From: Centroscyllium fabricii
Lineage: Eukaryota
Length of the DNA stretch: 64,000 nt
Direction: 5' to 3'
Assembly (NCBI GenBank): GCA_051313645.2
Contig: JBNRSN020000001.1
Span: 523,714,001-523,778,000, forward strand
Shown here: one piece after another, positions 3,246 to 54,586 of the stretch
Layout: every line of letters starts with the position of its first letter
How positions within the stretch are numbered: the stretch's first letter is position 1
The notes under the pieces: generated by a model
Seen by the model: the letters and a program-made list of their open reading frames with translations, nothing else
What the model was told of the DNA's origin: nothing
Databases searched by the model: none
Program-made: the position numbers and the translations under genes

Positions 3246-3915
3246 TATGACAAAGAATACGTTATTTTCACCAAAAAAAAAATTGAATGGGCACAAGCAA
3301 GGCAAATATTTTATTAAAAACTAAAGTTTAAAAAAGATTTTTTTTTAATGAAAGATAAATAGAATCATAGAATGATACAGCATGGAAGGAAGCCATTCGG
3401 CCCATCGTGCCTGTGCCACCTCTTTGGTAGAACGATCCAATTAATCCCATCCCCTGCTCTTTCCCCAGAGCCCTGTAATGTTTTTCCTGCGGGTATTTAT
3501 CGAATTCTCTTTCATATGTCACTATTGAATCTGCTTCCACCACTCGGTCAGGCAGCGCGTTCCAGGCCATAATAACTCGCTGCCTAAAATAATTCTCCTC
3601 ATCTCAGCTCTGATTCTTTTGCCAATCACGTTAAATCTGTGTCCTCTGGCTACCGACCCTTCTGCCACTGGAACCAGTTTCTCTGTATTTACTCTATCAA
3701 AACCATTCATGATTTTGAACACCTCCTGTCAAACCTCCTCTTAACCTTCTCTGCTCCAAGGACATTAAACCTAACTTCTCCGGTCTCTCCGCACAACTGA
3801 AGTCCCACAGCCCTGGTATCATTCCAGTAAACCTCTTCTGCACCCTCTCCAAGGCCTTCTCATCCTTCCTAAAGTGCGGTGCCCAGGATTGAACACAATT
3901 ACCCAGCTGATGCTC

Positions 3916-7457: not shown

Positions 7458-8891
7458 CAGGTTGAGCACCGTTAATCCGGCACCCTCGGGTCCAGGCCGG
7501 TGCCGAACCACTGAAAATTACAAACCACTGAATGTTCGGGGGGAGCGCGCGGGTAGAACACTCCCCGGGTCCTGGAGCGCGCAGTAGAACACTCCCCGGG
7601 TCCGGGAGCGCGCGGGTAGAACACGCCCCGGGGCCCGGAGCGCGCAGGTAGAACACTCCCCGAGTCCTGGAGCGCGCAGTAGAACACTCCCCGGGTCCGG
7701 GAGCGCGTGGGTAGAACACTCCCCGGGGCCCGGAGCGCGTGGGCAGAACACTCCCCGGGGCCCGGAGCGCACGGGTAGAACACTCCCCGGGGCCCGGAGC
7801 GCGCAGGTAGAACACTCCCCGGGGCCCGGAGCATGCGGGTAGAACACTCCCTGGGGCCCGGAGCGCGCGGGTAGAACACTCCCCGGGGCCCGGAGCGCAC
7901 GGTAGAACACTCCCCGGGTCCTGGAGCGCGCAGTAGAACACACCCCGGGTCCTGGAGCGCACGGATAGAACACTCCCCGGGGCCCGGAGCGTGCGGGTAG
8001 AACACTCGCCGGGGCCCGGAGCGCGCGGGTAGAACACTCCCCGGGGCCCGGAGCACGCGGGTAGAACACTCCCCGGGGCCCGGAGCGTGCAGTAGAACAC
8101 TCCCCGGGTCCAGGAGCGCGCGGGTAGAACACTCCCCGGATCCGGGAGCGCGCGGGTAGAACACTCCCCGGGGCCCGGAGTGCGCGGGTAGAACACTCCC
8201 CGGGGCCCGGAGCGCGCGGGTAGAACACTCCCCGGGGCCCGGAGCATGGGGGTAGAACACTCCCCGGGGCCCGGAGCGCGCGGGTAGAACACTCCCCGGG
8301 GCCTGGAGCGTGCGGGTAGAACACTCCCCGGGGCCCGGAGCGCGTGGGTAGAACACTCCCCGGGGCCCGGAGCGTGCGGGTAGAACACTCCCCGGGGCCC
8401 GGAGCGCGTGGGTCGAACACTCCCCGGGGCCCGGAGCGTGCGGGTAGAACACTCCCCGGGGCCCGGAGCGCGCGGGTCGAACACTCCCCGAGGCCCGGAG
8501 CGCACGCGGTAGAACACTCCCCGGGGCCTGGAGCGTGCGGGTAGAACACTCCCCGGGGCCCGGAGCGCGCGGGTAGAACACTCCCCGGGGCCCGGAGTGT
8601 GCGGGTAGAACACTCCCCGGGGCCCAGAGCGTGCGGGTCGAACACTCCCCGTGGCCCGGAGCGCACGCGGTAGAACACTCCCCGGGAGGGAGCCCGGGGA
8701 TAGAACAGTTACAAAACCTAAAAAAAAAAGAAACCCAAATGCCCGACGCCTTCGGCACTCGCTCACCTTTCCCGAGAAACGGTGGCACCGCCGAGCGACT
8801 GCGCCGCAGAATGAAGAGCGCCGGTTTCCATTCGTGCCGGACCACTGAAGCTGCCGGAACATCGGGTGCTGGGTTACCGGTGCTCAACCTG
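7458..8891. mobile_element. pogo/Tigger-like MITE with expanded internal minisatellite
   Basis: TIRs CAGGTTGAGCACCG...CGGTGCTCAACCTG with TA TSDs (7456-7457, 8892-8893); relatives at 23431 and 44318. Confidence 0.85.
7543..8707. repeat. GC-rich minisatellite, unit about 30-32 bp (GGGTAGAACACTCCCCGGGGCCCGGAGCGCGC), roughly 36 copies
   Basis: Direct tandem repeats with no unique spacers. Confidence 0.97.
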
Positions 8892-9344: not shown

Positions 9345-9569
9345 TGTGCTAATCGTGTAAATACCACTGTACATAGTTGATGGCTCACCTTGTATTGTAT
9401 TGTAGGCCAGGTCAGCCACACCCCTAACTCCTCCCCTCAGGTCGGAGCATGTAGGTGAGGGCTGTCCTGCCCCCGCACATTCTTCGCCTTGAACTCATCA
9501 GGAGACCAGCTCCATAGTTAGTTAGTTTAGGTAACTACTCGTCTTTGCGTTTTAATTGACGATACGTCA
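9345..9569 (+). mobile_element. Solo LTR related to the Gypsy element at 46946-51825
   Basis: TG...CA ends; 5-bp TSD AATGC (9340-9344, 9570-9574); shares GGTCAGCCACAC, GGTAACTACTCGTCTTTG and TTGACGATACGTCA with that LTR. Confidence 0.88.
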
Positions 9570-11214: not shown

Positions 11215-14200
11215 TGTAGTCCATGCAGGCCTGAAGAACCACGCTGGAGCCAGTAAGACAGGAAAACACTCGTTTATTACATTACAGGGACCAGGTAGCA
11301 AAGAGACTGAACCACCTGGAGCAGGCTTATTTAAAGGGCCCGCGGTTGGTGATCTCATCACGCCGGAAGTCGAGGTGACGTCACCGCGTCACCCGATGGG
11401 CGGGGCCGTGCCCCGCGGTGCTCCCGAGGCGGATTCGATACCTTTGGTGGGCGTGTCGCCACACAGCTCCCCCCCAGAATCTGTGAGGGAGAATAAAGTG
11501 AAAATAAAAAAAGGGAGAATAAAGTGAAAATAAAAAATGAGTCTCATGCGAGGCGTTGAGGTGGCCGGATGATGCGGCCGGCACGTGTCGTGCGCTGCTC
11601 CTTGTTCTGCGTGGGAGTGTGGGCGGGATTTGGTGCGGGAGGGCGTCCGCGTTTTGGTGGCTGCGCGGGGACTGTTGTCTCGCCCGCCATTACGTGTGCC
11701 GGTTTGAGCCGGTCTATCGAGACGGTTTCAGTTCTGTTGCCCATTTTGATTTCAAAAGCCTTAGCTCCCGCCCGAAGCACTCTGTACGGTCCGTCGTACG
11801 GTGGCTGTCGTGGCGTTCGATGTGCGTCGTGGCGGACAAACACATATTTGGCGTTCTTGATGCCGTCCGGTACACGTGCTGCCGGCTCTCCGTGCCGGGC
11901 CACCGGTAGTGGTTTGAACGCTCGTGCCTGGTTGTTGAAGTCTTTGAGGCACTGGTCGGCTGACCAGGGAGCGTTATGTTCTGCGAGGAACTCGCCTGGT
12001 ATGGTTAAAGGTTGGCCGTAGATGAGTTCCGCCGCTGAGGCGTGTAGGTCTTCTTTGGCCGCTGAGCGCAGGCCGAGCATTACCCAGGGCAGGCGGTCGG
12101 TCCAGGTTGCGTCCTTCAGACTGGCCCGCAGGGAAGCTTTGATGGAGCGGTGGAACCATTCGCAGAGTCCATTGGCCTGTGGGTGGTAAGCGGTGGTTCT
12201 GTGCAGGGTTACCCCGAGGTCGCGGGCGATGGTCGCCCATAATGTCGACGTGAATTGGGGGCCCCTGTCCGACGTGATGTCGGTGGGTACGCCGAAACGT
12301 GCAACCCAGGTGGCGATGAAGGCCCTGGCCAGGTCCGCGGTGCTGGTAGCGATGAGTGGGACTGCCTCTGGCCAGCGAGTGCTGCGGTCGACCATGGTCA
12401 TGACGTGCGTGTGTCCCCGTGATGGTGGTAGTGGTCCGACCAGGTCGATGTGGACGTGGTCGAAGCGTCTAGCTGGTATGGTGAACGTTTCCAGCGGTGC
12501 CTTGATGTGTTTGTGCACCGTGGCGTGCTGGCAGGCAATGCAGGCATTGGTCCAGGCGCGGACATCCTTGCGCAGGCCGCGCCAGATGAAACGTGCCGAA
12601 ATCAGCTTAGTGGACGCGCGGGTGCCAGGATGGGACAGGCCATGAAGGGTCTGGAAGATGTGTCGCCTCCATGCGTGGGGGACGACGGGTCTGGGCTGCG
12701 GGAGGGAGACGTCGCAGCGGACCGCTGTGGCTGTGGGCCCGTGTGCTACGCTGGCCAAGTGCAGGCCGGGGAGGTTGGTAGCTGGGTCGAGCAGGTCAGG
12801 GTCGGTTAGTTGGTCGGCCGCCAGTTTGGCGTAGTCGACTGCCGTTTGTACGGCGCTGATGGTGGGTCATGACAGGCAGTCAGCAACCACGTTGTCGCGG
12901 CCGGCGATGTGCTGTATGTCGGTGGTGAATTCCGACACGGCCGCGAGCTGGCGCTGCTGCCTGGCCGACCAGGGTTCGGCGATCTTAGCCATTGCTGACA
13001 AAAGTGGCTTGTGGTCCACGAAGGCTGTAAAGTGGCGGCCCTCTAAGAGGAAGCGGAAGTGACGCACTGCGAGGTAGAGAGCGAGTAGCTCCCTGTCGAA
13101 GGCGCTATACTTAACCTCTGGGGGCCGAAGTTGTCGGCTGAAAAAGGCCAGGGGTTGCCAGGAGTTGCTGGTCCACTGCTCGTAGACCGCTCCGACCGCA
13201 TGGTCAGAGGTGTCGGTGGTGAGGGCCACTCTGGCGTTGGGCCTAGGGTGGGCTAGGAGCGTGGCATTGGCCAGGGCGGTTTTGGTTGCGGTGAAGGCGG
13301 TGGTGGCTTCGGCCATCCACTCGACCGCAGTTTTGTTAGACTGCCCGCGGGTGGCCTGATAAAGGGGTGCCATGAGAGCGGCTGCTCCTGGGATGAAGCG
13401 GTTATAAAAATTAACCATCCCGAGGAATTCCTGCAGCCCCTTGATGGAGTGCGGGCGGGATAATTCCTGGACCACCTGCACCTTGGAGGGCAGGGGTATG
13501 GCCCCGGTCTGGGAAATGCGGTGGCCGAGGAAGTCGATCGTCTCGAGGCCGAACCGACATTTGGAGGGGCTTAATATGAGGCCGTGTTCGACCAGGCATT
13601 TGAACAGGGTCCTGAGATGGAGGAGGTGTTCCTGGGGGGAGGTGCTGGCCACGAGGATGTCGTCTAGGAAGACGAACGTGAACTGCAAGTCCCGTAGGAC
13701 TGAGTCCATGAGGCGTTGGAAGGCCTGGGCCGCGTTTTTGAGTCCGAAAGGCATTTAGAGAAATTCGAATAGTCCAAATGGGGTAATGAAGGCTGTCTTA
13801 GGGACATCCGCCGGGTGCACTGGTACCTGGTGGTAGCCCCGTACCAGGTCGATCCTGGAAAAGACCGTGCAGCCCGCTAACCTTGCTGAGAAATCTTGGA
13901 TGTGGGGGACGGGGTACCTGTCTGGGGTGGTGGCGTTGTTGAGGCGGCGGTAGTCTCCGCAGGGGCGCCAGCCACCGCCCGGCTTGGGGGCGATGTGGAG
14001 GGGGGAGGCCCAGGGGCTGCTGGAGCGGCGGATTATGCCGAGTTGTTCCATGGTGCGGAACTCGGTACGCGCGATCTCCAGTTTGGCCGGGTCCAGCCTG
14101 CGGGCGTGGGCATGGACGGGAGGGCTGGTGGTGGTGATGAAATGCTCCACCCAATGTTTGGCCGTACGGGCTGTGAAGGTGTGGTTGGTGAGGGCTGGGA

Positions 14201-15701
14201 ACTCCGCGAGGAGCGTGCCGTACGTGTCGGAGTTCCGGGCTCGGCAGTGTGCCGCTGCGTGGGCCTGGTGTGCCGGCCCTGTGGAGCATGGGATGGTCGA
14301 CATGTTATGGATGTCGACCAGTCGGCGCCGGGTCACGTCGACCAGGAGGCCGTGGGCGCAGAGGAAATCTGCCCCGAGGAGGGGTAGTTTGACTTGGGCG
14401 GTGATAAAGTCCCAATGGTACGTGTGGCCTGCTAGCTTGATGGTGAGCTTGTGGGTGCCGTACGTTTTTATTTCGGAGCCGTTTGCGGCTTCGAGTGGCG
14501 GGCCCCGGGTGCCTTGTTTGGTTTCTGCGGGGGAGGCTGGCACAATGCTGTGCTGCGCGCCTGTGTCGCAGAGGAACCGGAGGCCTGTGCCGCTGTCCGT
14601 GACATAGAGCAGTGCTCCAGAGCGACCTACGGACATGGTGGGGCTTGAGCTGGGCTGGGGTTTGAAGGTGCAGGGCTGGACGCAGCGCTGCGCTTTGGCT
14701 TCAAACCGGGTGTGGTAGTAACACCAGCTGGTGCCTGTTGTACGCGGCCTTTTGCGGGGTTGCGTTGGTCTGGGTTCAGACTTGGGGTCGGACCTGGGGT
14801 GCGCGTAGCGGGGCTCGGCTGCCATAGCAGCGGGCTCGCACGTGGCGGAGCGGGTGCGCTCGGCCGTCATAAGCTTGTCGGCCTCCTCAGCCAGCCGTTC
14901 TCCACTGTAGTGGCAGAGGGCCGTCAGAGCCGGTCTGACGGAGGGGGGCAGTTTGAGGAGGAACAAGGTGCGCTTGATGGAGGCTGGGTCTGCGTTCAGC
15001 GCTTCCATTTGGGCCCAAAGGTCCGATGGGTCTGCGTCCCCGAGTTCGGGGAGGTTGATGAGCTGGCAGTCGCGCTCAAATTGGGAGGGGGTGAATTTCT
15101 TTAGCAGCGCGGCCTTAAGGAATTCATACCTGCCTGCTGCTGGTGCACGCTGTAGCGTCGGCCACATCCGGTCGACCATGGTCTGTGGTAGGGCCGTGAA
15201 GAGCAGGTCGTATCGATCGTCCCCCTGGATGCCATGGATGCGGCAGCTGGTCTCGATGCAAAGGAACCAGGCCGCTGGGCGTAGCTCCTAGAACTCTGGC
15301 AGAGTTGGTTTTTGGCCAGAGTTCTGGCCCAGTCTTTGATGTCGCGCTGCTTGGCTCCCTGATGGCATGTTGGTTGGGAGTGTTCTGAGGCAGCTTGGCC
15401 CTCAGTCCTGCAGCAACTGCTTCATTTTTGTTCCCTTGGAAGACGTTCCAAGTACGGGGTCACCACTGTAGTGCATGCAGGCCTGAAGAACCACGCTGGA
15501 GCCAGTAAGACAGGAAAACACTCGTTTATTACATTACAGGGACCAGGTAGCAAAGAGACTGAACCACCTGGAGCAGACTTATTTAAAGGGCCTCATCACG
15601 CCGGAAGTCGAGGTGACGTCACCGCGTCACCCGATGGGCGGGGCCGTGCTCCGCGGTGCTCCCGAGGCGGATTCGATACCTTTGGTGGGCGTGTCGCCAC
15701 A
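11215..15701 (-). mobile_element. Full-length Gypsy LTR retrotransposon 1 (CsRn1-like)
   Basis: LTRs 11215-11463 and 15467-15701 (TG..CA, differ by a 14-bp indel and about 3 substitutions); TSD ATAT; PBS TGGTGACCCCG complementary to the tRNA-Trp 3' end; PPT TTCTGGGGGGGGAGCTG. Confidence 0.97.
11544..15368 (-). pseudogene. gag-pol polyprotein of Gypsy-1, single frame with three in-frame stops
   Basis: Gag CYYHxxxxxxxxxCxxxC, protease DTGA, RT FLDD, RNase H, integrase HHCC/DDE and GPY; ORF pieces are all in one frame (1275 codons). Confidence 0.92.
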
Positions 15702-25311: not shown

Positions 25312-28300
25312 TGTAGAGGCATGCAGGCCTGAAGAACCACGCTGGACACAGAGGATTCGGAAAACAATCATTTAATGTTCACACAACTAGGGCCAGGTAG
25401 CAAAGAGACTGAGCCACCTGGAACCAAGGGATTTAAAGGACCCGCGGTTGGTGACGTCACTGCCGGGTGTCCACCTGGCGACGTCATCACGCCGGAAGTC
25501 GCGGTGACGTCATCACGCCGCCCGGCGGGCGGGGCCGTCTCGCAGAACTCCCGAGGCGGATTCGATGGTCCTGGTGGGCGTGTCGCCACACAGCTCCCCC
25601 CCAGAATCTGTGAGGGAGAGCGAAGTTTAAGCTAAAGTAGAAAGGAGCATAAAGTAAAATAAAAAAATGGAGCATAAAAGTTGAGTCTCAGGCGAGGTGT
25701 TGAGGTGGCCTGAGGATGCGGCCCGCCCGTGTAGTCTCAGGCGAGGCGTTGAGGTGGCCTGATGATGCGGCCAGCATGTGTCGTGCACTGCTCCTTGTTC
25801 TGCGTGGGAGTGTGGGCGGGCTTTGGTGCGGTAGGGCGTCCGCGCTTTGGTGGCTGCGCGGGGACTATTGTCTCACCCGCCATTAAATGTGCCGGTTTGA
25901 GCCGGTCGATTGAAACAGTCTCAGCTCTGTTGCCCATTTTAATCTGGAACGTTTTAGGACCCGCCCGAAGCACTCTGTACGGTCCGTCGTACGGTGGCTG
26001 TAGTGGTGTTCGATGTGCGTCGTGGCGGACAAACACATACTTGCCATTTTTGATGCCGTCTGGAACACGTGCTGGCGGCTCTCCGTGCCGGGCCACCAGA
26101 AGTGGTTTGAACGCCGCTGCCTGGTTATTGAAGTCTTTGAGGCAGCGGTCGGCTGACCAGGGGGCGTTGGTTTCTGCGACGAACTCGCCTGGTACGGTTA
26201 GGTGTTGGCCATAGACAAGTTCCGCCGCCGAGGCGTGCAGGTCTTCCTTAGCCGCTGAATGCAGGCCGAACATTACCCAGGGCAGGCGGTCGGTCCAGGT
26301 CGCATCTTTGAGGCTGGCCCGCAAGGAAGCTTTGATGGAGCGGTGGAACCGTTCGCAGAGGCCATTGGCCTGTGGGTGGTAGGTGGTGGTTCAGTGCAGG
26401 GTTGCCCCGAGGTCGTGGGCGATGGTTGCCCATAGGGTTGAGGTAAATTGGGGGCCCCTGTCTGATGTGATGTCGGTGGGGACGCCAAAACGTGCGACCC
26501 AGGTGGCAATGAAGGCCCTGGCCAGATCCGCGGTGGTGGTAGCGGTGAGGGGGACCGCTTCTGGCCAGCGGGTGCTGCGGTCGACCATGGTCATGACATG
26601 TGTATGTCCCCGTGATGGTGGTAGTGGTCCGACCAGGTCGATGTGGATGTGGCTAAAGCGTCTAGCTGGGATGGCGATCATTTCCACTGGTGCCTTGATG
26701 TGCTTGTGCACCTTGGCGCGCTGGCAGGCATTCCAGGTGTTGGTCCAGGCGCGGACATCCTTGCGCAGGCCGCGCCAAACGAATCATGCAGAGATCAGCT
26801 TTGTGGACGCGCGGACACCGGGGTGGGACAGGTCATGGAGGGTCTGGAAGATGTGTCGCCTCCATGCGTGGGGGACGACGGGTCTGGGCTGCGGGAGGGA
26901 GACGTCGCAGCGGACCTCCGTGGCTGTGGGCCCGTGTGCTACGGTGGCCAAGAGCAGGCCGGGGAGGTTCGTAGCTGGGTCGAGCAGATCGGGGTCGGTC
27001 AGTTGGTCGGCCGCCAGTTTGGCGTAGTCGACGGCCGTTTGAACGGAGTTGATGGTGGGGCGTGACAGGCAGTCAGCAACCACGTTGTCGCGGCCGGCGA
27101 TGTGCTGTATGTCGGTGGTAAACTCCGACACAGCCGCGAGCTGGCGCTGCTGCCTGGCCGACCAGGGTTCGGAGATCTTAGCCATTGCTGACACGAGTGG
27201 CTTGTGATCCACGAAGGCTGTAAAGTGGCGGCCCTCTAGGAGGAAGCGGAAGTGGCGCACTGCGAGGTAGAGAGCGAGTAGCTCCCTATCGAAGGCGCTG
27301 TACTTGACCTCCGGGGGCCGGAGTTGTCGGCTGAAAAAGGCCAGGGGTTGCCAGGAGTCGCCTGTCCACTGCTCGTAGACCGCTCCGACGGCGCGGTCGG
27401 AGGCGTCGGTGGTGAGGGCTACTCTGGCGTTGGGCCTAGGGTGGCTGAGGAGCGTGGCGTTAGCCAGGGCGGTTTTGGTTGCGGTAAAGGCGGTGGAGGC
27501 TTCGGCCGTCCACTCGACCGCAGCCTTGTTGGACTGCCCGCGGGTGGCCTGATAGAGGGGTGCCATGAGAGCGGCTGCTCCTGGGATGAAGCGGTTATAG
27601 AAGTTAACCATCCCGAGGAATTCCTGCAGCCCCTTGATGGAGTGCGGGCGGGGGAATTCCTGAACCGCCTGCACCTTGGAGGGCAGGGGTATGGCCCCGG
27701 TCTGGGAGATGTGGTGGCCGAGGAAGTCGATCGTCTCGAGGCCGAATCGACATTTGGAGGTGCTTAATATAAGGCCGTGTTCGGCCAGGCGGTTGAAAAG
27801 GGCCCTGAGATGGAGGAGGTGTTCCTGGGGGGAGGTGCTGGCCACGAGGATGTCATCTAGGTAGACGAATGTGAACTGCAAGTCCCGCAGGACTGAGTCC
27901 ATGAGGCGCTGGAAGGCCTGGGCCGCGTTTTTAAGTCCGAAGGGCATTCGGAGGAATTCAAATAATCTAAATGGGGTAATGACGGCTGTCTTAGGGACGT
28001 CCGCCGGGTGCACTGGTACCTGGTGGTAGCCCCGTACCAGGTCGTGCTTGGAAAAGACCGTGCAGCCGGCTAGCCTTGCTGAGAAATCTTGGATGTGGGG
28101 GACGGGGTACCTGTCCGGGGTGGTGGCGTTGTTGAGGCGGCGGTAGTCTCCGCAGGGGCGCCAGCCGCCGCCGGGTTTGGGGGCAATGTGGAGGGGGGAG
28201 GCCCAGGGGCTGCTGGAGCGGCTGATTATGCCGAGTTGTTCCATGGTGCGGAACTCAGCGCGCGCGATCTCCAGCTTGGCCGGGTCCAGCCTACGTGCGT

Positions 28301-29938
28301 GGGCATGGACTGGGGGGCCTGTGGTGGTGATGTGGTGCTCCACCCCGTGCTTGGCCGTACGGGCTGTGAAGGTGGGGTTGGTGAGGGCTGGGAACTCCGC
28401 GAGGAGCGTGCCGTACGTGCCGGAGTTCCGGGCTCGGCAGTGGGACGCTGTGTGGGCCTGGTGTGCCGGCCCTGTGGAGCATGGGATGGTCGACATGTTG
28501 TGGATGTCGACCAGGCGGTGTCGGGTAACGTCGACCAGGAGGCCGTGGGCGCACAGAAAGTCGGCCCCGAGTAGGGGTATTTTGACTTGGGCTGTGATGA
28601 AATCCCACTTGTACGTGTGGCCTGCTAGCTTGATGGTAAGCTGGCGGGTGCCGAACGTAACTATCTCGGAGCCGTTTGCGGCTTCGAGTGGTGGGCCTTG
28701 GGTGCCTTGCTTGGTTTCTGCGGGGGAGGCTGGCACGATGCTGTGCTGCGCGCCTGTGTCGCAGAGGAAGCGGAGGCCTGAGCCACTGTCCGTGACGAAG
28801 AGCAGTGCTCCGGAGCGGCCTACGGACATGGTGGGGCTTGGGCTGGTTTGGGGTTTGAAGGTGCAGGGCTGGACGCAGCGCTGCGCTTTAGCTTGAAACC
28901 TGGTGTGGTAGTAGCACCAGCCGGGGCCTGTGGTGCGTGGCTTTTTACGGGTCCGCACCGGTCTGGGTTGGGACCTGGGGCCGGGCCTGGGGTGCGCGTA
29001 GTACTGCTCCGGTGGAGCGGCGGTGGGTTGGCACGTGGCGGCTCGGGTGCGCTCGGCCCTCATCAGCTTGTCGGCCTCCTGAGCCAGTTGCTCCTTGGTA
29101 TAGTGCTCAAGGACCGTCAGAGACGGTCTGACGGAGGGGGGCAGTTTAAGGAGGAACAAGGCGCGCTTAATGGTGGCCGGGTCACAATTGAGCGCTTCCA
29201 TTTGGGCCCAGAGGTCCGATGGGTCTGCGTCCCCGAGTTCGGGGAGGTTAATGAGCTGGCAGTCGCGCTCAAATTGGGTGGGGGTGAAATTTTGTAGCAG
29301 CGCGGCCTTAAGCGTTTCATACCTGCCAGCGGTTGGTTCGTGCTGTATGGATGACCACATTCGGTCGATCGTGGGCTGTGAAAGGGCCGCGAAGAGCAGG
29401 CTGTATCGATCGTCCCCCTGCACGCCATGTATGCGGTAGGTGTTCTCTGTGTTGAGGAACCAGGCCGCTGGACGGAGTTCCCAGAACTCTGGTAAGTTTG
29501 GGATTTGGCCGTAGTTCTGGCCCCGTCTGTGGAGTCGTGCTGTTTGGCTCCCTGCTGGCATGGTGGTTGTGATTCAACTGAGGCAGCTTGGCCCTCAGTC
29601 CTGCAGCAACTGCTTCATTATGTTCCCTTGGAATTCGTTCCAAGTATCGAGGTCACCACTGTAGAGGCATGCAGGCCTGAAGAACCACGCTGGACACAGA
29701 GGATTCGGAAAACAATCATTTAATGTTCACACAACTAGGGCCAGGTAGCAAAGAGACTGAGCCACCTGGAACCAAGGGATTTAAAGGACCCACGGTTGGT
29801 GACGTCACTGCCGGGTGTCCACCTGGCGACGTTATCACGCCGGAAGTCGCGGTGACGTCATCACACCGCCCGGCGGGCGGGGCCATCTCGCAGTACTCCC
29901 GAGGCGGATTCGATGGTCCTGGTGGGCGTGTCGCCACA
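25312..29938 (-). mobile_element. Full-length Gypsy LTR retrotransposon 2 (CsRn1-like)
   Basis: 279-bp LTRs 25312-25590 and 29660-29938 (about 5 differences); TSD TTAG/CTAG; PBS TGGTGACCTCG (tRNA-Trp-like); PPT next to the 3' LTR. Confidence 0.97.
25737..29561 (-). pseudogene. gag-pol polyprotein of Gypsy-2; 925 codons open, then two in-frame TGA stops in the integrase
   Basis: CHCC gag motif, DTGA protease, YLDD RT, TDAS RNase H, integrase DDE/GPY; one frame, 1275 codons. Confidence 0.93.
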
Positions 29939-31499
29939 CTAGATGTGTTTTTGAAGCTCTTCCTTTTCAAATCTTACACAGATTTCTCCATGTAAGTTTT
30001 GAATGGAGGATTGCTTCCATTGATTGGCTCCCTGCCGATCACGTGGTCTCGTGCGATGTCTCGGACTAACTGCGCCGTTGAGCTGCACCAGCAGGTCGCT
30101 TAGAGCTTTCAGCAGTTGTATAACTTGGGAGTTCACATCGTAGAATTTCAAAACGTCAAAAGTGCAGGGTAAGTGTACCTTGGAGCCTTGCACTCACAGG
30201 AAGGCTCCAAGGCTAATTTCTGGGCCAATATCTGATCAGCAAAACTTACAATTCATTAATCACAGCGCTGAATTGAAGACTGGCATTTGTTTTATGAAAC
30301 ACTGAATCAGTTCCAGGTGCTTCCTGAACCTATATTTTATACAAGTCAGTCAAATGCGTCCAGTCCTATTAAATTCCTGGATCTTTCTGTCTGGATAAAA
30401 ACACAGATTACAGGAAACACACGTGTCTTAAGATTACTCTAACTTTCCAATTCTGCAGCAGCTGCTGATTGCATCCATTTTATTTCTCATTAAAGAGAAC
30501 GGTTCATTACAAGTAGAATAGGTGTTAATTTCCTCTCTGTCAGTGTTTTCAGGCTTGTTTACCTGGGAACCCAAGTGTAACTAAAGAAAAATTCCCACAG
30601 CATGTGGCGAGAGATCTTGGTGGGGCGACAGAGAGCTGCACTGCTTAAAGATGCAGCCTCACATCTCAAAACCCCAAGGTTTAATTATCATGTGCAGCCT
30701 AGTGTAGAATCAGAAGGTCTCTGTGGTAGATGAGCATTTGTCAGATTGATGACCCACAAAGAGGGGGAGGGAATGGAAAAAAATGAAAAGATTTTACAAT
30801 ATAAGCAGAGTCTGGCACAGAAGCCTTTTTAATTTGATATTTTAGTCTTCTAGAATGTTAACTAATAATAATAATTAAATGTTGATTGAATTCACAATTG
30901 GAACTATTCTGTGAGAATTATGCAGCATTACATTGCACATTTTTTGGAGATGGTAGTTGGAAATTTAAGATTATCGACGAGCAATTCAATTAGAAGAATT
31001 TATAATAGAAAGTGTTGGGTGTTTTCACTTTTTAGCAGGTCATGTTAGAAATACCAGTTCTTGTGTGACATCGGTGTTGCCCCAATTGACAGCTGTGCAA
31101 AGGAAGTGGAGATACCTTCTCATGCCAGGTGTCCATCACGTGAACATTGCCCAAAATTGGTCATGGATGTGTGCGCAATATATAACATTCTGCTCTCGTC
31201 TTTAACTATTTCTGGCAAACTAATAGGAGGCTTGGTCCTTAGTTCTTAAGTGATACCTTTACTGGGGAGAATGAGTAAGAATGAGTTTCATCAGGTCAGA
31301 ATCCTGACACTCCCTCCCTAACAGCGCTGCGGGAGCACCTTCACCACACAGACTGCAGCGGTTCAAGAAGGCGGCTCACAACCACCTTCTCAAGGGCAAT
31401 TAGAAATGGGCAATAAATGCTGGCCTTGCCAGCGACGCCCACATCCCAAAAATGAATTAACAGCAGGTTTCACGTTAAAAAGACATGGCGGTGAATGTC

Positions 31500-32540: not shown

Positions 32541-34230
32541 CATAGAATCATAGAATCATAGAAACTTTACAGTGCGGATAAAGGCCATTCGGCCCATCCA
32601 GTCCGCACCGGCCCGGGAAACTCCTCACTATACTAACCCCATTTACCCGCATCTGGCCCATAACCCTGTATGTTACGGTCCTTCATGTGCTGGTCCAAAT
32701 ATTTTTTAAATGTTGCGATGGTTTCTGCCTCCACCACCCTTACAGGCAGGGAGTTCCACACTTCCACCACCCTCTGAGTAAAGAAATTTCTCCTTACCTC
32801 CCCCCTAAACCTCCCCCCACTAATCTTGAATCTATGTCCCCTGGTACTTGACTCTCCCACCAAGGGAAACAATGCCCCTTTATCCACCTTATCGTGTCCT
32901 CTCATGATCCTGTATACCTCGATCATGTCACCCCTCAATCTTCTCTTCTCCAAGGCAAACAACCCCAGCCTGTCCAGCCTTTCCTCGTAGCATAAGTCCC
33001 CCAGACCAGGTATCATCCTGGTAAACCTTCTCTGCACCCTCTCCAGGGCAACCACATCCTTCCTGAAGTGCGGTGACCAGAACTGCACACAATACTCCAG
33101 CTGAGGTCTCACCAGCGTGTTATACAAGTTTAACATTACCTCCCTACTTTTGTACACTATGCCCTGGTTAATAAAGGCCAGAATTCCGTATGCCTTCTTA
33201 ACCACCTTGTTTACGTGTCCAGCAACCTTCAGGGAGCTGTGCACCTGTACCCCAAGGTCCCTCTGTTCCTCGGTCCTACCTAACGTTTTTTTGTTCATGG
33301 TATATTCCCTTACCCCATTTGGTCTGCCGAATTGTATGACCTCGCATTTCTCTGGGTTGAACTCCATTTGCCATTTTTCTGCCCAACTAACCATTACATT
33401 TATATCTTCCTGGAGCCTTTTACTATCTTCTTCGTTATTTACCACCCTTCCAATTTTCGTATCATCAGCAAATTTGCTGATCGTTCCCCCTACTCCCGTG
33501 TCCAAATCATTAATGTATACTAGAAACAGTAAGGGTCCCAAAACCGATCCTTGGGGGACACCGCTGGTTACTGGTTTCCAGTCACAGAAGCAGCCCTCTA
33601 CCATTACCCTTTGTCTCCTGTCCCCCAGCCAATTTTGAATCCACTGTGCCACGTTGCCCTGTATCCCATGTGCTTTTACCTTTGTTATCAGTCTCCTATG
33701 TGGGACTTTATCAAAAGCCTTGCTGAAGTCCATATACACCACGTCGACCGTACTCCCTTCATCCACCCTTTTTGTTACCTCTTCGAAGAATTCCAAGAGA
33801 TTAGTTAGGCACGACTTACCTTTGACGAAGCCATGTTGACTATCTCTTATCAGACCCTGCCTTTCCAAATGCAGACTGATTTTGTCCCTCAGAATTTTTT
33901 CCATTACTTTCCCCACTACAGATGTAAGACTGATTGGCCTATAGTTACCCGGTTTGTCCCTACTACCCTTTTTAAACAGGGGTACTACATTAGCCGTTCT
34001 CCAGTCCTCGGGTACCTCCCCTGACGCGAGAGAGGACCTGAAGATTTGAGACAGGGGGCCCGCAAGCTCTTCCCTGGCCTCGAACAGCAGCCTGGGGAAC
34101 ATCGCGTCCGGCCCTGGTGATTTGTCTACCTTTAAGCTTCCCAAGATTTCTAGTACTTCTTCCCTTGTAATGGTAATATCCTCGATTACCCCCCCTACAT
34201 TCTGTCCGATTACGATGTCGGTTCCGTCCC
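32541..34230 (-). mobile_element. Young 5'-truncated CR1 LINE
   Basis: (TTCTATGA)n tail; uninterrupted RT frame. Confidence 0.95.
32633..34230 (-). CDS. CR1 ORF2 reverse transcriptase region, open but lacking its own start
   Basis: QHGF, DFSKAFD, GVPQGSVLGP, FADD motifs with no stops; the listed start codon lies in the flanking SINE. Confidence 0.85.
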
Positions 34231-34845
34231 TGCAAACTCCACACAGATAGTCACCCGAGGCCGGATTTGAACCCGGGTCTCCAGTGCTGTGAGGCAACAG
34301 TGCTAACCACTATGCCACCATGCCGAGTTAATTATACAGAGTTATGGATAAATAATAAATAAATAGATAAATGAATAAAGAGTGCAAATAGCATTTCAAA
34401 GAGTAGATGAGCAAGTGCTGGGGGGCAAAAGGGCTGTTAATGTTAATACCGTACTCTGACTACATGCCCTTATAAAAAGTGTAATTTTACTGTCAGAAAA
34501 TATCACCCATGTCCCCCTCAGCCTAGTGGCTAAAGGTTCCACCAGTTGTGTCAGAAAACCAAGCAGACCAGAAGCTCTCGGGTTTGCTACCCACACACAT
34601 GCACTTTGAAGCAGGGTTCAGTGATACCAGTCAGGACTGGTAACCCTGTCGAAGGTGCTGATGGAGGCCAATTGTGGCGCCCTAACTGTTACTCTGACTA
34701 AGATCACAAAAGACTGGAACTGAACCTGAGAAAGTATGATCCCTTTTGTTCAGTGCAACGTTGAGTGAGGCCTTTAGACACTAGACCATTAGAAAACTTC
34801 AAAAATATTTTCAAAGTGTTTAAAAAAAAAACAATGTCAGGCATC

Positions 34846-35651: not shown

Positions 35652-37078
35652 ATAGAAACATAGAAACATAGAAAATAGGTGCAGGAGTAGACCATTCGGC
35701 CCTTCGAGCCTGCATCGCCATTCAACACGTTCATGGCTGAACATGCTACATCAGTACCCCGTTCCTGCTTTCTCGCCATATCCCTTGATCTCCCTCGTTG
35801 TAAGTATTACATCTAACTCCCTTTTGAATATATTTAGTGAACTGGCCTCAACAACTTTCTGTGGTAGAGAATTCCACAGGTTCACCACTCTCTGGGTGAA
35901 GAAGTTTCTCCTCATCTCGGTCCTAAATGGCTTACCCCTTATCCTTAGTCTGTGCCCCCTGGTTCTGGACTTCCCCAACATTGGGAACATTCTGCCTGCA
36001 TCTAACCTGTCTAAACCGGTCATTATTTTAAACGTTTCTATGAGATCCCCCCTCATTCTTCTGAACTCCAGAGAGTACAAGTTCAGTTGATCCAGTCTTT
36101 CTTGATATGTCAGTCCGGCCATCCCGGGAATCAATCTAGTAAACCTTCTCTGCACTCCCTCAATAGCAAGAATGTCCTTCCTCAAGTTAGGAGACCAAAA
36201 CTGCACACAATACTCCAAGTGTGGCCTCACCAAGGCCGTGTACAACTGCAGCAACACCTCCTTACTCCTGTACTCAAATCCCCTCGCTATGAAGGCCAAC
36301 ATGCCACCTGCTTTCTTAATTGCCTGCCGTACCTGCATTTCCCCCTTCAGTGATTGATGTACCATGATGCCCAGGTCTCGTTGCACCTCCCCTTTCCCTA
36401 ATCTGTCACCATTCAGATAATAGTCTGTCTCTCTATTTTTACCACCAAAGTGGATAACCTCACATTTATCCACATTGTACTTCATCTGCCATACATTTGC
36501 CCATTCACCTAACCTGTCCAAATCACTCTGTAGCCTCTTAGCATCCTCCTCGCAGCTCACGCTGCCTCCCAATTTAGTGTCATCCGCAAATTTGGAGATA
36601 CAACATTTAATCCCTTCATCCAAATCATTAATATATAATGTAAACAGCTGGGGCCCCAGCACCGAACCTTGCGGTACCCCGCTGGACACTGCCTGCCATT
36701 CTGAAAACTGCCCATTTACTCCTACTCTTTGTTTCCTGTGTGCCAACCTGTTCTCAATCCACCTCAACACATTACCCCCAATCCCATGTGCTTTAACTTT
36801 GCACACCAATCTCTTGTGTGGGACCTTGTCGAAAGCCTTCGGAAAGTCCAAGTACACCACATCTACTGGTTCTCCCCTGTCCATTCTACTGGAAACATCC
36901 TCAAAAAATTCCAGAAGATTTGTCAAGCATGATTTCCCTTTCGTAAATCCATGCTGACTTGGACCTATCATGTCACCACTTTCCAAATGGTCTGCTATGA
37001 CATCCTTAATAATTGATTCCATCATTTTATCCACTACCGATGTCAGGCTGTAATTCCCTGTTTTCTCCCTCCCTCCCT
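35652..37078 (-). mobile_element. CR1 LINE, 5'-truncated, with open RT frame (35751 to about 37070)
   Basis: QHGF, GVPQGSVLGP, FADDTK motifs; (TTTCTATG)n tail. Confidence 0.93.
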
Positions 37079-37871
37079 GATTGTTGAGGTGGGTTCCCAA
37101 AAGAAATATTTTGGTTTTACTGCTGTGACTTTCATTAGTGATTTGTTTTCTTGCTAACTTTCTTCCCTTCCCTCCGCTCCTGAAGCCATTTAGGTCGATT
37201 TTCACTTGCTTTGCCTGAGGTTAATGGGACGGGAACGGCCTCGAAACGGATTTGGCAGCCGTATGGCTCCATTAACCGCGGCGATGCGTCCGGCTCCATT
37301 TTGAAAGGGGCCTACTGTCGGAGTCCAAAGTGCCCGTCTGTTTCAGGCATTAGGGACGTTCTGATATGCAAATCAGGGTCCTACGACGTAAATAAAACCA
37401 CGATTTCCATTTTTTAAGTTGAAACCGGTGCGGGCTCCGATCAATTCCACGAGCGATGGAGCTGAAAAGGTCCGGCAACTGTAAGTTTGGAATTATTTTT
37501 GCAGAATTGCTCCCCCAGTCTTTGCAAAATTATTCAGGGCCACTGTCGCTCTGGGACTCCACCTGCATGATTTTGCTTCAAATACAGGCCAGCGTGCTCT
37601 GCCGGTCGTTTGCCCGAAAGTCAAAATAAACACCACTGACTCCTTGCTGGCGGATTAGTGCTGATTCTGTGACTGTGCCATCCCGGGGAAGAGCAGCACC
37701 AACAGCGAGTGCAGGTCAGGAAATTATCGTGCCACTAATTGCTACCCTGCTGAGATAATCTATCTCAACACAGTCTGGGAATCAAAGGGTGTTGGAAGCA
37801 GATTCAATAGTAACTTTCAAAAGAGAATTGGATAAATACATTTGTAGGGCTATGGGGACAAAGCAGGGAGT

Positions 37872-46683: not shown

Positions 46684-47326
46684 TGACGCTGCGGGCACAC
46701 ACCAGGGCAGCCTCCTCGACCTCAGCCTAGGGGCCATCCCTCATTTCTAAATCTACGCAGCGAACGTCAGCAGACTGTGCTGTCGTGGAGGGCATCACGG
46801 CCAGACCTGATCCTGTTCTGAGTCTAAATCTGCGCTATCCAGCGGGGTTCTTCAATAGCAAGCAGGAGTTAGGACCCTGGCTGATTTCTTTTCCCCTTTC
46901 CTGACACAGGAGCACTAAGGTCAATAGATTATTCCTATTGCTCTCTGACGTATCGTCAATAAGACAAAGACGAGTAGTTACCTTAACTAGAGGCTTTTAA
47001 TCACTTTACAATGGAGCTAGTCTCCAGTCGAACATTGAGTACAGAATGAATGGGGGCAGGTCAGACCTCACCTATAAGGCGCTCACCTTAGGGGAGGAGT
47101 TAGAGGTGTGGCTGACCTGACCTCGCGACAGTGTCGTTATACAAAACTATATACAATGCACCCAGCCACTATACATGCTGGTCTGTAGTGTGCTCAACTA
47201 TATACACTGGTAATCATGATAACCACATTCACCCCTTCTTTGAAAATTGAGTCCGGCGGGGTGAATGGACAGAACCTGTTAGTGCAAGGAATTATTTGTT
47301 TTAGTATAGTATGGTATGAGTCCAGC

Positions 47327-50190
47327 TCAACAGTTCACAATGAGTCTCTCTGGCGGTCGTGTCTGCCTTGAGGACCGCCGGGGTTCTGGTAGTGGCGCTG
47401 GTGCCGGTTGTGGCGGCGGGGCCGGGTCCTCCGGCAGCTGTGCCTGCGGTGTGGCGTCTGGCTCTGGGTCCTCAGCTGGTAGTGTCGGGGGCCCCGGTGT
47501 GTGCGTGTGCCTAGGCCAGTATCCGGTGGGTTGTGGTTGGTGTGTAGGCCAGTGGTCAGTAGGCGGTGGCTGGTCGGGCTGAGGCTCGACCAGGGGCTCT
47601 GCTGTGGTGCTCCCGGCGGGCGCTAGGTCCCTGATGGAAACAGTGTCCTCGCGCCCGTCTGGGAACTGCACGTAGGCGTACTGCGGGTTGGCGTGCAGCA
47701 GCTGCACCTTTTCCACCAGGGGATCGGTCTTATGGCCGCGGACATGTTTCCTAAGTAAGACCGGCCCTGGCATCGTGAGCCACGGTGGGAGTGCTGTCCC
47801 CGAAGTCGACTTCCTGGGGAATGAAAACAATAAGTCGTGAGGTGTGGCGTTGGTAGCCGTACACAGCAGAGAGCGGATGGAGTGGAGCGCGTCTGGGAGG
47901 ACTGCCTACCAACGGGACACTGGAAGGCCTCTGGACTTCAGGGCCAGGCTGACCGCCTTCCAGATGATCCCGTTCTCCCTTTCTACCTGGCCGTTCCCCC
48001 GGGGGTTGTAACTGGTCGTTCTGCTCGAGCCAACCCCTTTCTGAAGCAGAAACTGACGCATTTCGTCGCTCATGAACAACGACCCCCGGTCGCTATGGAT
48101 GCAGCTGGGGAGACCGAAAATGGCGAACAGCGTGGTGAAGTGTTTGATCACCATTGCGCTCGTCATATCTGGGCAGGGGAAGGCAAAGGGGAAGCGGGAG
48201 AACTCGTCTACGACCGTGAGGAAGTACGAGTTGCGGTCGGTGGAGGGGAGTGGGCCTTTGAAGTCCACGCTTAGACGTTCAAAGGGGCGGGTGGCCTAAA
48301 TGAGATGTGCCATGTCTGGCCTGTAAAATTGGGGTTTGCACTTGGCGCAAACAGGGCACTCTCGGGTCATAGCCTTGATCTCCGTGATGGAGTAGGGGAG
48401 GCTACGAGATTTAACGAAATGGGCAAGTCTGGTGATAGCCGGGTGGCAGAGGCGATCGTGGAGTTCCTTCAGCCGGTCTAGCTGGGCACTGGCGCAAGTT
48501 CCCCTGGACAGTGCATCCGGGGGTTCGTTGAGTTTGCCTGGTCAGTAAAGAATGTCGTACTCGTAAGTCGAGAGCTCGATCTGCCACCGCAGGATCTTAT
48601 CATTCTTGATTTTACCCTTTTGTTTATTGTTAAACATAAACGCGACTGACCGTTGGTCGGTGAGCAGGGTAAAACGCTTACCGGCCAGGTAATGACGCCA
48701 GTAGCGCACGGCCTCCACGATGGCCTGGGCCTCCTTTTCCACTGCAGAGTGGCGAGTTTCGGGTCCCTGTAGGGTGTGGGAGAAAAACGCTATGGGCCTG
48801 CCTGCATGGTTCAGGGTGGCGGCAAGGGCAAAGTCCGAAGCGTCACTCTCCACCTGGAAAGGGATGGACTCATCAACGGCGTGCATGGTCGCCTTGATAA
48901 TATCTTCCTTAATCAGGGCGAACGCCTTTTGGGCTTCTACCGAGAGGGGAAGACGTCAGCCTTGAGGAGCGGTCTGGCCTTGTCCGCGAACTGGGGAACC
49001 CATTGCGCGTAATAGCAGAAAAATCCCAGACATCTCCTCAGGGCTTTGGGGTTGTGAGGTAAGGGCAGTTCCTGTAAGGGGCGCATACGCTGTGGGTCGG
49101 GGCCGAGGACCCCGTTTTCCTCCACGTATCCGAGGATGGCGCGCCGATCTGTACTAAAGACGCACTTGTTTTTATTTTACATGAGATCGAGCCGTTTCGC
49201 CGTGTGGAGGAATTTGGCCAGGTTGGCATCGTGGTCCTGCTGGTCATGGCCGCAGATGGTCACGTTGTCCAGGTAGGGGAAAGTGGCCTGCAACCCATTC
49301 TGGTCAACCATGCGGTCCATCTCCCTTTGGAATACCGACACTCTGTTGGTCATGCCGAAGGGGACCCGGAGGAAGTGGTAGAGCCGACCGTTCGCCTCGA
49401 AGGCGGTGTACGGGCGGTCGGCTTTCTGGATCGGGAGTTGGTGATACGCCGACTTAAGGTCGATTGTGGAGAAAACCTTATACTGGGCGATCTGGTTAAC
49501 CATGTCCGAGATGCGTGGAAGGGGGTAGGTGTCGAGCCCGCGGTATTGGTTAATGGTCTGGCTGTAGTCGATCACCATCCGCAGTTTCTCGCCAGTCTTA
49601 ACCACTACGACCTGGGCCCGCCAGGGGCTGGTGCTGGCTTCAATTATCCCCTCCTGCAGCATACGCACGACCTCCGACCTGATAAATGCCCGATCCCCCG
49701 CACTGTAACGCCGACTCTTGGTAGCAATAGGTTTGCAGTTGGGGTCGAGTTTGGCGAACAGCGAGGGGGGGTCGACTTTCAGGGTGGATAGGCTGCAAGT
49801 TGGGCCCCGCTTTAGGAAGGGATTTTCCCGGCTACTGACGGTGAGGGGGGCCAGGGTCCCGCCGAACTCCATTGTCACGCTCTGCAGGTGGCACTGGAAA
49901 TCCAGTCCCAGTAAGACTGGGGCGCACAACTGCTGGAGTGTGTACAGTTTAAAATTACGGTACACACAGTCCCTGACTGTGAGCGTGACGGAGCAGTAGC
50001 CGGTGACGTCCGCCGTGTGGGACTTTGAAGCAAGGGAGATTTGGTAGTGCGTGGGCAGGGTCTGCAGTCCGTAGCGCCGCACTGTGTCGGGGTGAATGAA
50101 GCTCTCTGTGCTTCTGGTGTCGAACAGGCAGTTGGTGATATGGCCGTTAACTTTAATCCCCATCATGGAATTTGATAGGGTGTGACGCCT
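47327..50190 (-). pseudogene. Gypsy-3 pol (protease, RT, RNase H, integrase), frameshifted and with stops
   Basis: LFDTRS (protease site variant), IDLKSAYHQ, YLDN, SDAS RNase H, HSDRG and NGQVER integrase. Confidence 0.88.
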
Positions 50191-50252
50191 AGCCTGGTCG
50201 ACCGTGGCTGAGGCCGAAGTGTGTGTGTGTGTGTGTGTGTGGGGGCCCTCCG

Positions 50253-51518
50253 CTAACTGGGGCCGTGCACAAGATGGCGGCGCCCGTGGTTCGCACGCAG
50301 CCGACCGCGGTGGACAAGATGGCGGCGCCGGGGGGTCGCACATGGCTGGCCGCTGAAGACAAGATGGCGGCGCCGGGGGGTCGCACATGGCTGGCCGCTG
50401 AAGACAAGATGGCGGCGCCATGATTCGCACACAGCGGGCCGCGGTGGACGCAGTGGCGGTGCCCATGGTTCGCACGTGGCGGTCCGCGGTGGCCGAGTTG
50501 GCGCCGCCCGTGATTCGCACGCAGTGGGCCGCACTGGGCGAGATGCCGGCGTTGGGGGGTCGCCTATGGCCGGCCGCGGCCATCTTTGGTGTGGCGGTGC
50601 CCGTGCCGTGTGCGCGGCCGGCCTCTGCCGTATCAGGGTGGGAGACGGGGGCGCTTGTAATCTACCCCCGGACCGCTGCTGGGTCGCGCTGCAACAGCAG
50701 CTTACCTGAGGCCATGGGATGGCTTTGGAGCTCTCGCAGGCCGCGCTGTTGTGTCTGGAGCTGGGCGCTGGGGCCGACTTGCAGGCCCTGGCGTAGTGTC
50801 CCTTTTTACTACATCTCTCACAGGTCGCGGTCCTCGCGGGGCATTTCGCTCGCGGATGCAGTCCCTGGCCGCAGAAGTAGCATTTTCTGTCCGCCGGCGT
50901 CTTCGCAGCTGCCGCTGCCATTGTGGGGGTCTCGACCTGTCGTGGGGCCGCCCAGGAATCGAGGGTGTCGTGTGGGCCTTGGCCGCTGTATGCCTCTAGC
51001 CTGCGGCGTGCTCCATCCACCGCGTTAGAGATGGAGATCGCCTCCTCCAGCGATAAAGTCTCTTTTTCCAGCAACCACTGGCGGGCCTGGCTGGACCTGA
51101 TCCCCATCACGTAGGCGTCTCGAACGAGAAGATTTGTTTCCTCCTGCGCCATTTGTGGCTGGCAGTCACAGGCCCGGGCGAGGGCTTGAAGCGCCAACAA
51201 ATACTGTTCATTAGACTCACCGAGCCGTTGTTGTCTGGTCGCCAGCACGTGTCTGGCATAGACCGAGTGGACCGGGCGCACGTAGCATGCCTTCAGTTTC
51301 TCCACGGCCTCTTCGTACGTTGTTGCGCCGCGGATGAAGGAGTACACCCGGCTGGTGATCCTGGACGAGAGAACGTGGAGTTTGTTCTCGTCGGTCATCG
51401 CCTTGGCGGCCGCCACGTAGGCCTCGACAAGGCTGAACCAATGTTTAAACGTATTGGCGCCGTCTGGTTCCTGTGGATTAATATCCAGCTTTTCGAGTTT
51501 CACAGCGCCGCTCTCCAT
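50253..51518 (-). pseudogene. Gypsy-3 gag (two CCHC-type knuckles)
   Basis: CYFCGQGLHPRAKC and CERCSKKGHYARAC; ATG 25 nt downstream of the 5' LTR; 3' end uncertain. Confidence 0.85.
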
Positions 51519-52139
51519 TTCAAAAATTTAAAGTGATTAAAATTGACGTATCGTCAATAAGACAAAGACGAGTAGTTACCTTAACTAGAGGCTTTTAATC
51601 ACTTTACAATGGAGCTAGTCTCCAGTCAAACATTGAGTACAGAATGAATGGGGGCAGGTCAGACCTCACCTATAAGGTGCTCACCTGAGGGGAGGAGTTA
51701 GAGGTGTGGCTGACCTGACCTCGCGACAGTGTCGTTATACAAAACTATATACAATGCACCCAGCCACTATACATGCTGGTCTGTATTGTGCTCAACTACA
51801 TACACTGGTAATCATGATTACCACACTCTCCCAGCTGTGAACAGCCTAACTCAGCTAAGAATGGGGAGTCGAACCTGAGACCTTGCTGGTCTGTATAGTT
51901 CATTAGCACAGTGGACAGCAGATTTACCGCCTGAGCCATCAGGGCACATCGTCTCACGATTATTTTTTTCTGAGGATATCACAAAACATGAGTGACTATC
52001 CGAGATCACCATCAGGCAAACCTTCGTCTGTCCAGTTCCAAACGGTTTCTATGCATTTCAAAGAGCTGTTTGTAAGTGCAGAACTGCTGCATTATAATAA
52101 AAACATGGAACCTCAGCTCACCTAACTGTTCAACTGGTT

Positions 52140-53454: not shown

Positions 53455-54586
53455 GAAAGACTTACATTTTTATAGCACCTTTCACGACCACCGGACGTCT
53501 CAAAGCGCTTTACAGCCAATGAAGTACTTTTTGAAGTGTAGTCGCTGTTGTAATGTGGGAAACGCAGCAGCCAATTTGCGCACAGCAAGCTCCCACAAAC
53601 AGCAATGTGATAATGACCAGATAATCTGTTTTTGTTATGTTGGTTGAGGGATAAACATAGAAACAAAGAAGATAGGAGCAGGAGTAGGCCATTCGGCTCT
53701 TCGAGCCTGCTCTGCCATTCAATGAGATCATAGCTGATCATCCAAACCCAGCACCCTTTCCCTGCCTTATCCCCATATCCCTATCGAGCCTGCACTGACA
53801 CATATCCCACCCCAGCCCCGTAACCCCACACATTCAATCCCCCCTAACACTAAGGGTCAATTTATCCTGGCCAATCAACCTAACCCGCACATCTTTGGAC
53901 TGTGGGAGAAAACCGGAGCACCCGGAGGAAACCCACGCAGACACGGGGAGAATGTGCAAACTCCACACAGATAGTACCCGAGGCCGGATTTGAACCCGGG
54001 TCTCTAGTGCTGTGAGGCAACAGTGCTAACCACTATGCCACTGTGCCGCCCTCATAAATATTGACCCAGGACACCGGGGATAACTCCCCTGCTCTTCTTC
54101 GAAATCGTGCCATGGGATCCTTTACGTCCACCTGAGAGAGCAGATGGGGCCTCGGTTTAATGTCTCTGATAGGCCATCAATAATCCAAGCGAGAGGTTTA
54201 CGGACTTAAAGGTAGGCTTTTAATAACTAAGAACTGTGGTGCATGTTTCCACACTGAGTTCTCCAGGTCGAATGGCTCAAACCGCTCTGGAGTCCTCCAT
54301 ATAACAAAAGACAAGGGCGAAGCCCGACATATAGAATAGACAAAGGTGGGCGGTACATACATTCCATACATTCCTAGCACAGGCAAGTCCAGGTGAAAAG
54401 CACAGTCTGATGAACATACATATTTCATCACAGTCTCATTTGAAAGACGGCACCTCCGACAGTGCAGCACTCCCTCAGCACTGCACTGGAAGTGTCAGCC
54501 TAGTTTTATGTGCTCAAGTCCCTGGAGTGGGGACTGTGAACCCACAACCTTCTGACTCAGAGGTGAGTGTGCCACCCGCTGAGCCA
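53455..54586 (-). mobile_element. Deu-domain SINE split by an HE1-like SINE (53654-54051) and a solo LTR (54167-54432)
   Basis: The Deu sequence resumes across both inserts. Confidence 0.82.
54167..54432 (-). mobile_element. Solo LTR, distant relative of the Gypsy-3 LTR
   Basis: TG...CA; TSD GTCTC (54162-54166, 54433-54437); shares TCAATAA and AGGCTTTTAAT.ACT with the Gypsy-3 LTR. Confidence 0.8.

Follow-up and report, generated by a model that had tools for sequence, protein, structure and literature searches.

How does an LTR retrotransposon start reverse transcription when the site next to its LTR does not look like the complement of a tRNA? This question was raised by a broken Gypsy element in a 64,000-nucleotide stretch of Centroscyllium fabricii DNA (hereafter, the window), whose primer-binding site (PBS) lacks the usual TGG and is complementary to a segment of the element's own LTR. 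To our knowledge, self-priming has been shown only in Tf1 of fission yeast, and it is predicted for the chromovirus kin of Tf1 and for one plant Copia lineage.

Structure of the element and of its primer-binding site

The element has the features of a Ty3/gypsy LTR retrotransposon (TG...CA LTRs, target site duplication (TSD), polypurine tract and domain order; Table 1). Stops and frame changes leave seven separate pieces of coding sequence, but the order gag, protease, reverse transcriptase (RT), RNase H and integrase is that of Gypsy elements, and intact relatives agree. The two LTRs are 97.2% identical over 289 columns. A single-sequence structure model of the C-terminal end of the integrase yielded one beta barrel followed by a tail (mean pLDDT 63), and its top structure matches were RSV integrase and Tudor/SH3 folds, none of them at E <= 0.001. 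A chromodomain, which the first-pass annotation had not seen in the element, was matched neither in the element's pieces nor in any of the eight full-length relatives scanned. Near the start of the 5' LTR lies a perfect 18-bp palindrome (51806-51823), which has one mismatch in the 3' LTR copy.

Table 1. Features of the element and related sequences, in window coordinates
Feature	Position	Strand	Remarks
Broken Gypsy element		-	4,880 nt (4.9 kb)
5' LTR	51544..51825	-	282 nt, TG...CA
3' LTR	46946..47227	-	own arm copy at 47008-46995
TSD GAGAG	46941..46945	-	partner 51826-51830; flanks both outer ends of the element
Polypurine tract	47228..47241	-	before the 3' LTR
gag frame	50253..51518	-	two CCHC-type knuckles (by-eye reading)
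Protease and most of RT	49177..50661	-	separate frame
RT end and RNase H	48542..49176	-	two broken pieces
Integrase	47327..48541	-	three pieces: zinc-binding, core, C-terminal beta barrel with proline-rich tail
TATA-like box TTATAGG	51669..51675	-	TATAAA at the same place in relatives
Initiator-like TTCATTC	51642..51648	-	predicted start 51645, 39 nt before the arm
Small hairpin	51610..51624	-	immediately 5' to the arm; weak and missing from some families
LTR arm (candidate self-primer)	51593..51606	-	ends in ATTAAA (51599-51594) and one A
GCC	51590..51592	-	right after the arm; predicted cut just before it
LTR-end hairpin	51542..51558	-	ATTGACG-ATA-CGTCAAT; spans the terminal CA
PBS	51529..51542	-	1 nt beyond the LTR; pairs with the LTR arm at every position
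Control Gypsy elements	11215-15701 and 25312-29939	-	canonical TGG primer sites
Solo LTR, related family B	9345..9569	+	TSD AATGC; arm deleted in this copy
Solo LTR, related family C	54167..54432	-	TSD GAGAC

The terminal CA of the 5' LTR is followed by a single A (51543) and then by the PBS, TTTTAATCACTTTA, which is the exact 14-nt complement of the LTR arm TAAAGTGATTAAAA. The loop between the two is 50 nt, and the gag ATG lies 24 nt after the PBS start. Fourteen pairs were reached in none of 5000 dinucleotide shuffles of the LTR and 13 in only one, most shuffles giving 4–5. Folding of 51660-51500 yielded the arm-PBS stem, the z-score for the whole sequence being just -1.4. The last two bases of the LTR-end hairpin fall outside the LTR, and its final T doubles as the first base of the PBS. 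The features that the first-pass annotation had reported from this locus, namely a 14-nt self-complementary PBS without TGG placed 1 nt after the LTR, an ATTAAA within the complementary LTR segment 50 nt upstream, and the hairpin at the LTR end, were all confirmed.

The two other Gypsy elements of the window, which we take to be CsRN1-like, served as controls. They carry TGG sites with G-TGGTGACC after the LTR, and their longest complement is just 6–7 nt. The PBS of the element and of its relatives (five families) was also compared, on either strand, with host Lys and Cys tRNA genes, the sole types among 11 tRNA loci typed, and the longest match was 5–8 nt; the comparison with host tRNAs proposed by the first-pass annotation thus covered these two types of gene.

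Conservation and co-variation of the pairing

The two solo LTRs that had been listed as relatives with 5-bp TSDs proved real. The families found through them, B and C, have different arms, each with a matching PBS, and the copy at 9345 has lost its arm by a deletion of ~13 nt relative to family B. Initial searches put the number of candidates at 3573 in family A, 1811 in B, 219 in C and 867 in A', figures that are not copy numbers. From family A, 138 copies were fetched, 134 remained after removal of duplicates, and 127 had both arms complete; pairing between arm and PBS was perfect in 94 of these 127. Further families were recovered by searching with gag. Among 148 gag-ranked copies of other families, 87 had at least 12 perfect in-register pairs beginning 1 nt after the LTR end, and in all 87 a poly(A) hexamer stood at the end of the arm. 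The other 61 had fewer than 12 pairs, and many of those examined carried substitutions or had lost the LTR. Two families with a 100-nt leader have the same layout and differ from each other in the hexamer (AATAAA versus ATTAAA), the PBS following suit.

The sister family A', which has the same gag start as family A but a different arm, allowed a forward test, in which the arm was seen first and the PBS was read afterwards. In this way 28 of 30 loci were read, and in 9 of the 10 copies of the 5' LTR before gag the PBS matched the arm at 13 of 13 positions.

To follow the changes pair by pair, we aligned 17 representatives, one natural copy per family, chosen by hand and mostly well kept. Over 11 pairs, 186 of the 187 cells were Watson-Crick (99.5%) and none was G-U, although these cells overcount independent events because the 17 families are related. 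Eight of the 11 pairs had changed on both sides, one-sided (G-U) changes were absent, and one position took four pair types. For the structure as a whole, this percentage of pairing was reached in none of 500 shuffles, and controls in which the pairing was slid gave 28–43%. The LTR-end hairpin in the same alignment was 80% paired, with G-U pairs and mismatches. The GCC that follows the arm is invariant in all 17 representatives.

More distant relatives were collected from metagenome contigs: 80 loci with 40–65% RT identity, 41 of them with a gag match and 38 evaluable. At least 13 perfect pairs were present in 24 of the 38. These loci are redundant and correspond to ~10 families in all, of which 8 had at least one copy with 13–19 pairs, one had 11 pairs and one had an interrupted helix; in two loci (L146 and L147) the arm-PBS stem was out of register. 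Two others, which represent one family (L100:1338 and L126:117), had 15 of 15 pairs in register before the same GCC, but their arms end in TTTTGAAGA, which contains no poly(A) hexamer; the poly(A) signal of these two must lie elsewhere or be different. The first-pass annotation had staked its reading, beforehand, on the complementarity being conserved in relatives, and it was indeed kept, through changes on both sides of the helix, both in the element's own genome and in metagenome contigs.

Individual copies of family A were less informative. In one copy (L409, 1 of 127) arm and PBS were changed at the same pair, roughly as often as expected by chance, and the 3' LTR of this copy could not be located. 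Another copy (L415) carried a substituted arm in each of its LTRs but kept the original PBS, and a variant in the distal part of the PBS occurred in 8 of 123 copies without a match in the arm; correction of the PBS from the primer was therefore not seen directly. A copy that had looked like a recombinant (L359, G000:C714:636384-636774) was rejected, because its family A 5' LTR carries a nested A' LTR within U5. Window position 51588, which lies 5 nt beyond the arm and is not a CpG site, is variable in 19 of 123 family A copies, with no linkage to lineage markers. This variation could be a template end mark or a palindrome-driven hotspot. We also observed near-identical long-leader copies every ~40–50 kb at G000:C712:93.30-94.39 Mb (L214, L218, L219 and L224-L230), a recurrence that suggests a large tandem segmental array.

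Predicted RNA start and the priming reaction

RNA polymerase II usually starts transcription ~30 nt after a TATA box. A TATA-like box was located 67–96 nt upstream of the arm in 15 of the 17 own-genome representatives (canonical TATAAA in 10), and in 7 of those 15 an Inr-like YCA(G/T)T followed ~30 nt after it, whereas a TATA at -22 to -40 of the arm was present in none of 22 representatives. Families B and F have degenerate boxes only (CATATAGG in 12 of 30 loci of B and mostly TACTTAGG in F). From the TATA and Inr positions and the usual spacing, we infer that the RNA starts ~40 nt before the arm (at 51645 here) and ~60 nt before it in the long-leader families. The arm thus likely lies ~40 nt inside R, and this spacing across families supports the earlier suggestion of an arm placed ~40 nt beyond a plausible TSS. 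None of the 5 metagenome representatives had a TATA-like box within 110 nt, so the promoter geometry may differ in these members, and the RNA of members with a short LTR, L105 for example, could begin directly with the arm.

We consider it highly probable that the element is self-priming in some form; the reading offered by the first-pass annotation largely holds, the complementarity being kept by co-variation across families. For the more specific proposal that an internal R arm, cut just after the hexamer, serves as the RT primer, we see about an even chance on the sequence evidence. Transcription would start ~30 nt after the TATA-like box, and the 5' R arm would fold back onto the PBS. The element's RNase H would then cut behind the arm, after the hexamer and before the invariant GCC, as in Tf1, and RT would copy ~50 nt of U5/R from the cut primer. 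In each round the PBS would be re-copied from the primer, which would explain why the pairing is so strictly Watson-Crick. In a secondary role rather than its chief one, this helix would mask the poly(A) signal at the 5' end, and the 3' copy of the hexamer would stay open because no PBS follows the 3' LTR. In 19 of 20 representatives the hexamer is indeed predicted to be closed when placed in its 5' surroundings, and to be more open without the PBS, but this closure is implied by the arm-PBS pairing itself and is true by construction.

Several points speak against priming from an internal arm. The primer would be ~50 nt long with its last 14 nt paired, and a stop or a second cut is needed at plus-strand transfer; the hairpin able to stop RT is weak and not general, and no conserved stop hairpin ahead of the arm could be established across families. 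In addition, an internal arm leaves just the stretch from the hexamer to the poly(A) site, perhaps 15–25 nt, for the first strand transfer. A linkage test for the strand-transfer junction favoured neither copy of the arm. With few downstream sites (123 of 139 copies) linkage seemed broken after the arm, but the break was lost when more gag sites were used (68 of 79 copies), U3 and R being linked to gag with r2 up to 0.74.

The geometry might instead be simply that of Tf1, with the genomic RNA beginning at the arm or only a few bases away from it, so that the arm would be the 5' end of the RNA. According to the accessible parts of the reports, Tf1 primes with its first 11 bases (PMC7175516) and Tf2 uses alternative start sites (PMC5341516). 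In several families the bases before the arm are also pyrimidine-rich and Inr-like, and no upstream TATA is present in the metagenome members. Nevertheless, such a start fits poorly with the TATAAA at -67 to -96 in 10 of 17 representatives and with the lack of any TATA at -22 to -40 in all 22, and we regard it as a minor, though real, possibility. A somewhat fainter one is that the RNA primes from its own 3' end, the 3' R arm pairing with the PBS and being cut or trimmed to the helix. The arm always lies just ahead of the expected poly(A) site, and it can be reasoned that the 40 nt of R before the arm would gain a use in strand transfer and that the primer would have the length of the arm. However, the 5' arm is just 36–58 nt from the PBS and would fold first, and no precedent was found in the literature searched.

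It could also be that the helix serves solely to mask the poly(A) signal at the 5' end, like the HIV-1 polyA hairpin in the available text of PMC2645353, and that something else primes. The hexamer at the arm end in every paired own-genome copy and its predicted closure speak for this. On the other hand, L100 and L126 retain the helix without the hexamer, and pairing that outlasts the poly(A) signal points to priming as the main job of the helix. Moreover, the primer position is precisely where the 3' arm of the helix starts, and this arm takes up most of a 25-nt leader, so that no other primer site is left, and the absence of G-U from 187 cells differs from the G-U pairs and mismatches of the neighbouring end hairpin. 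We therefore think it improbable that hiding the signal is all that the helix does. Priming by a host tRNA, a tRNA fragment or another host RNA, with an incidental match to the LTR, appears very improbable. Half-tRNA primers do exist in Copia lineages (PMC6317226, in the part available), and our comparison covered Lys and Cys tRNA genes, but there is no TGG, the matches to those genes are short, and the PBS differs from family to family within one genome while tracking the LTR arm each time.

Relation to known elements

The element shares with the Tf1/sushi group, as far as the available descriptions of that group go, a PBS complementary to its own LTR and a stem at the LTR end. Tf1 reportedly has a U5 stem-loop. 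In both Tf1/Tf2 (Schizosaccharomyces pombe) and Tj1 (S. japonicus), as well as in Tf1/sushi elements and Tcn1, the accessible text of PMC7175516, PMC4600332 and PMC6317226 describes Ty3/gypsy elements with no tRNA site, which also holds here for the Lys and Cys tRNA genes compared. The primer of Tf1 consists of the first 11 bases of its RNA, which pair with the PBS and are cut off by RNase H between bases 11 and 12 (PMC7175516; further background on Tf1 and Tf2 self-priming in PMC4600332 and PMC5341516, all seen in part). By contrast, the arm described here ends in a poly(A) hexamer and is predicted to lie ~40 nt inside R. The element probably works like Tf1, but the lack of a detected chromodomain separates it from the Tf1/sushi group and the position of its primer is probably different. 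Hairpin priming is treated as chromoviral in the portion of PMC3601003 that we could consult.

Self-priming has been described for Tf1/sushi, Tcn1 and the plant Copia TAR lineage in the accessible part of PMC6317226. For the TAR lineage of Ty1/copia (Houba, Osr-1) it was likewise predicted from complementarity to the LTR, by a test that asks for an LTR complement of at least 10 nt starting 0–5 nt after the LTR, and such a complement is present in our element. However, the TAR lineage consists of plant Copia elements with another domain order and a separate origin. The HIV-1 polyA hairpin is similar in that the poly(A) hexamer is held in an RNA helix that represses its 5' copy (same part of PMC2645353), but that hairpin forms at both ends and a tRNA acts as primer, whereas here the partner is the PBS, which occurs after the 5' LTR only. 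Skipper of Dictyostelium and the fungal GalEa are also LTR elements without TGG whose priming is unexplained; in the sections available, the papers on them (PMC5006619, PMC5445492) report no LTR complement to the site, in contrast to the element described here. The accessible sections on bivalve TRIMs (PMC6934838) and SM-Tcn1 (PMC2864245) describe elements that lack a tRNA site and mention no LTR complement. In literature outside subscription journals and Repbase reports, we found no non-chromoviral animal Gypsy element with a PBS that pairs with a poly(A)-signal segment, although a prior mention is possible.

The closest RT relatives were found in sharks and rays (75–81% identity) and then in corals, insects and crustaceans (about 60–64%); a second RT search added further insects, spiders and a nematode among the annotated hosts. 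In a 31-row RT tree, which left out 7 loci without usable RT, the 29 relatives formed one group, well apart from the only other elements included, the two Gypsy elements of the window that have TGG sites. RT identity among the clade's own members was 56–81%. The RT scored 80 bits against Ty3 RT and 70 bits against a chain of 8r0s, presumably a caulimovirus-type polyprotein. Searches for a name of the clade on Cigr-1 and Saci-2 gave no result, and its four RT motifs were not found in the readable supplements of PMC6238403, a paper that lists large unnamed mollusc clades, without a passage on the PBS in the text available.

These data suggest a further, probably independent case of self-priming in a compact Gypsy clade with RT relatives annotated in sharks, rays, corals, insects, spiders, crustaceans and a nematode. 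If R does enclose the arm, the first bases of the RNA would not be the primer, and priming and the silencing of the poly(A) signal at the 5' end would be coupled through one short helix. Priming from the 3' end, if true, would be a third mode for LTR elements besides tRNA and the 5' end used by Tf1. PBS finders based on tRNAs will miss or mis-type such elements.

Other parts of the window contain an array of a 32-nt unit at 7520-8713 in which long open frames are kept on the minus strand, and two LINE-type RT frames on the minus strand (32633-34309 and 35751-37220), which we assume to be CR1-like and which are accompanied by many short related repeats across the window.
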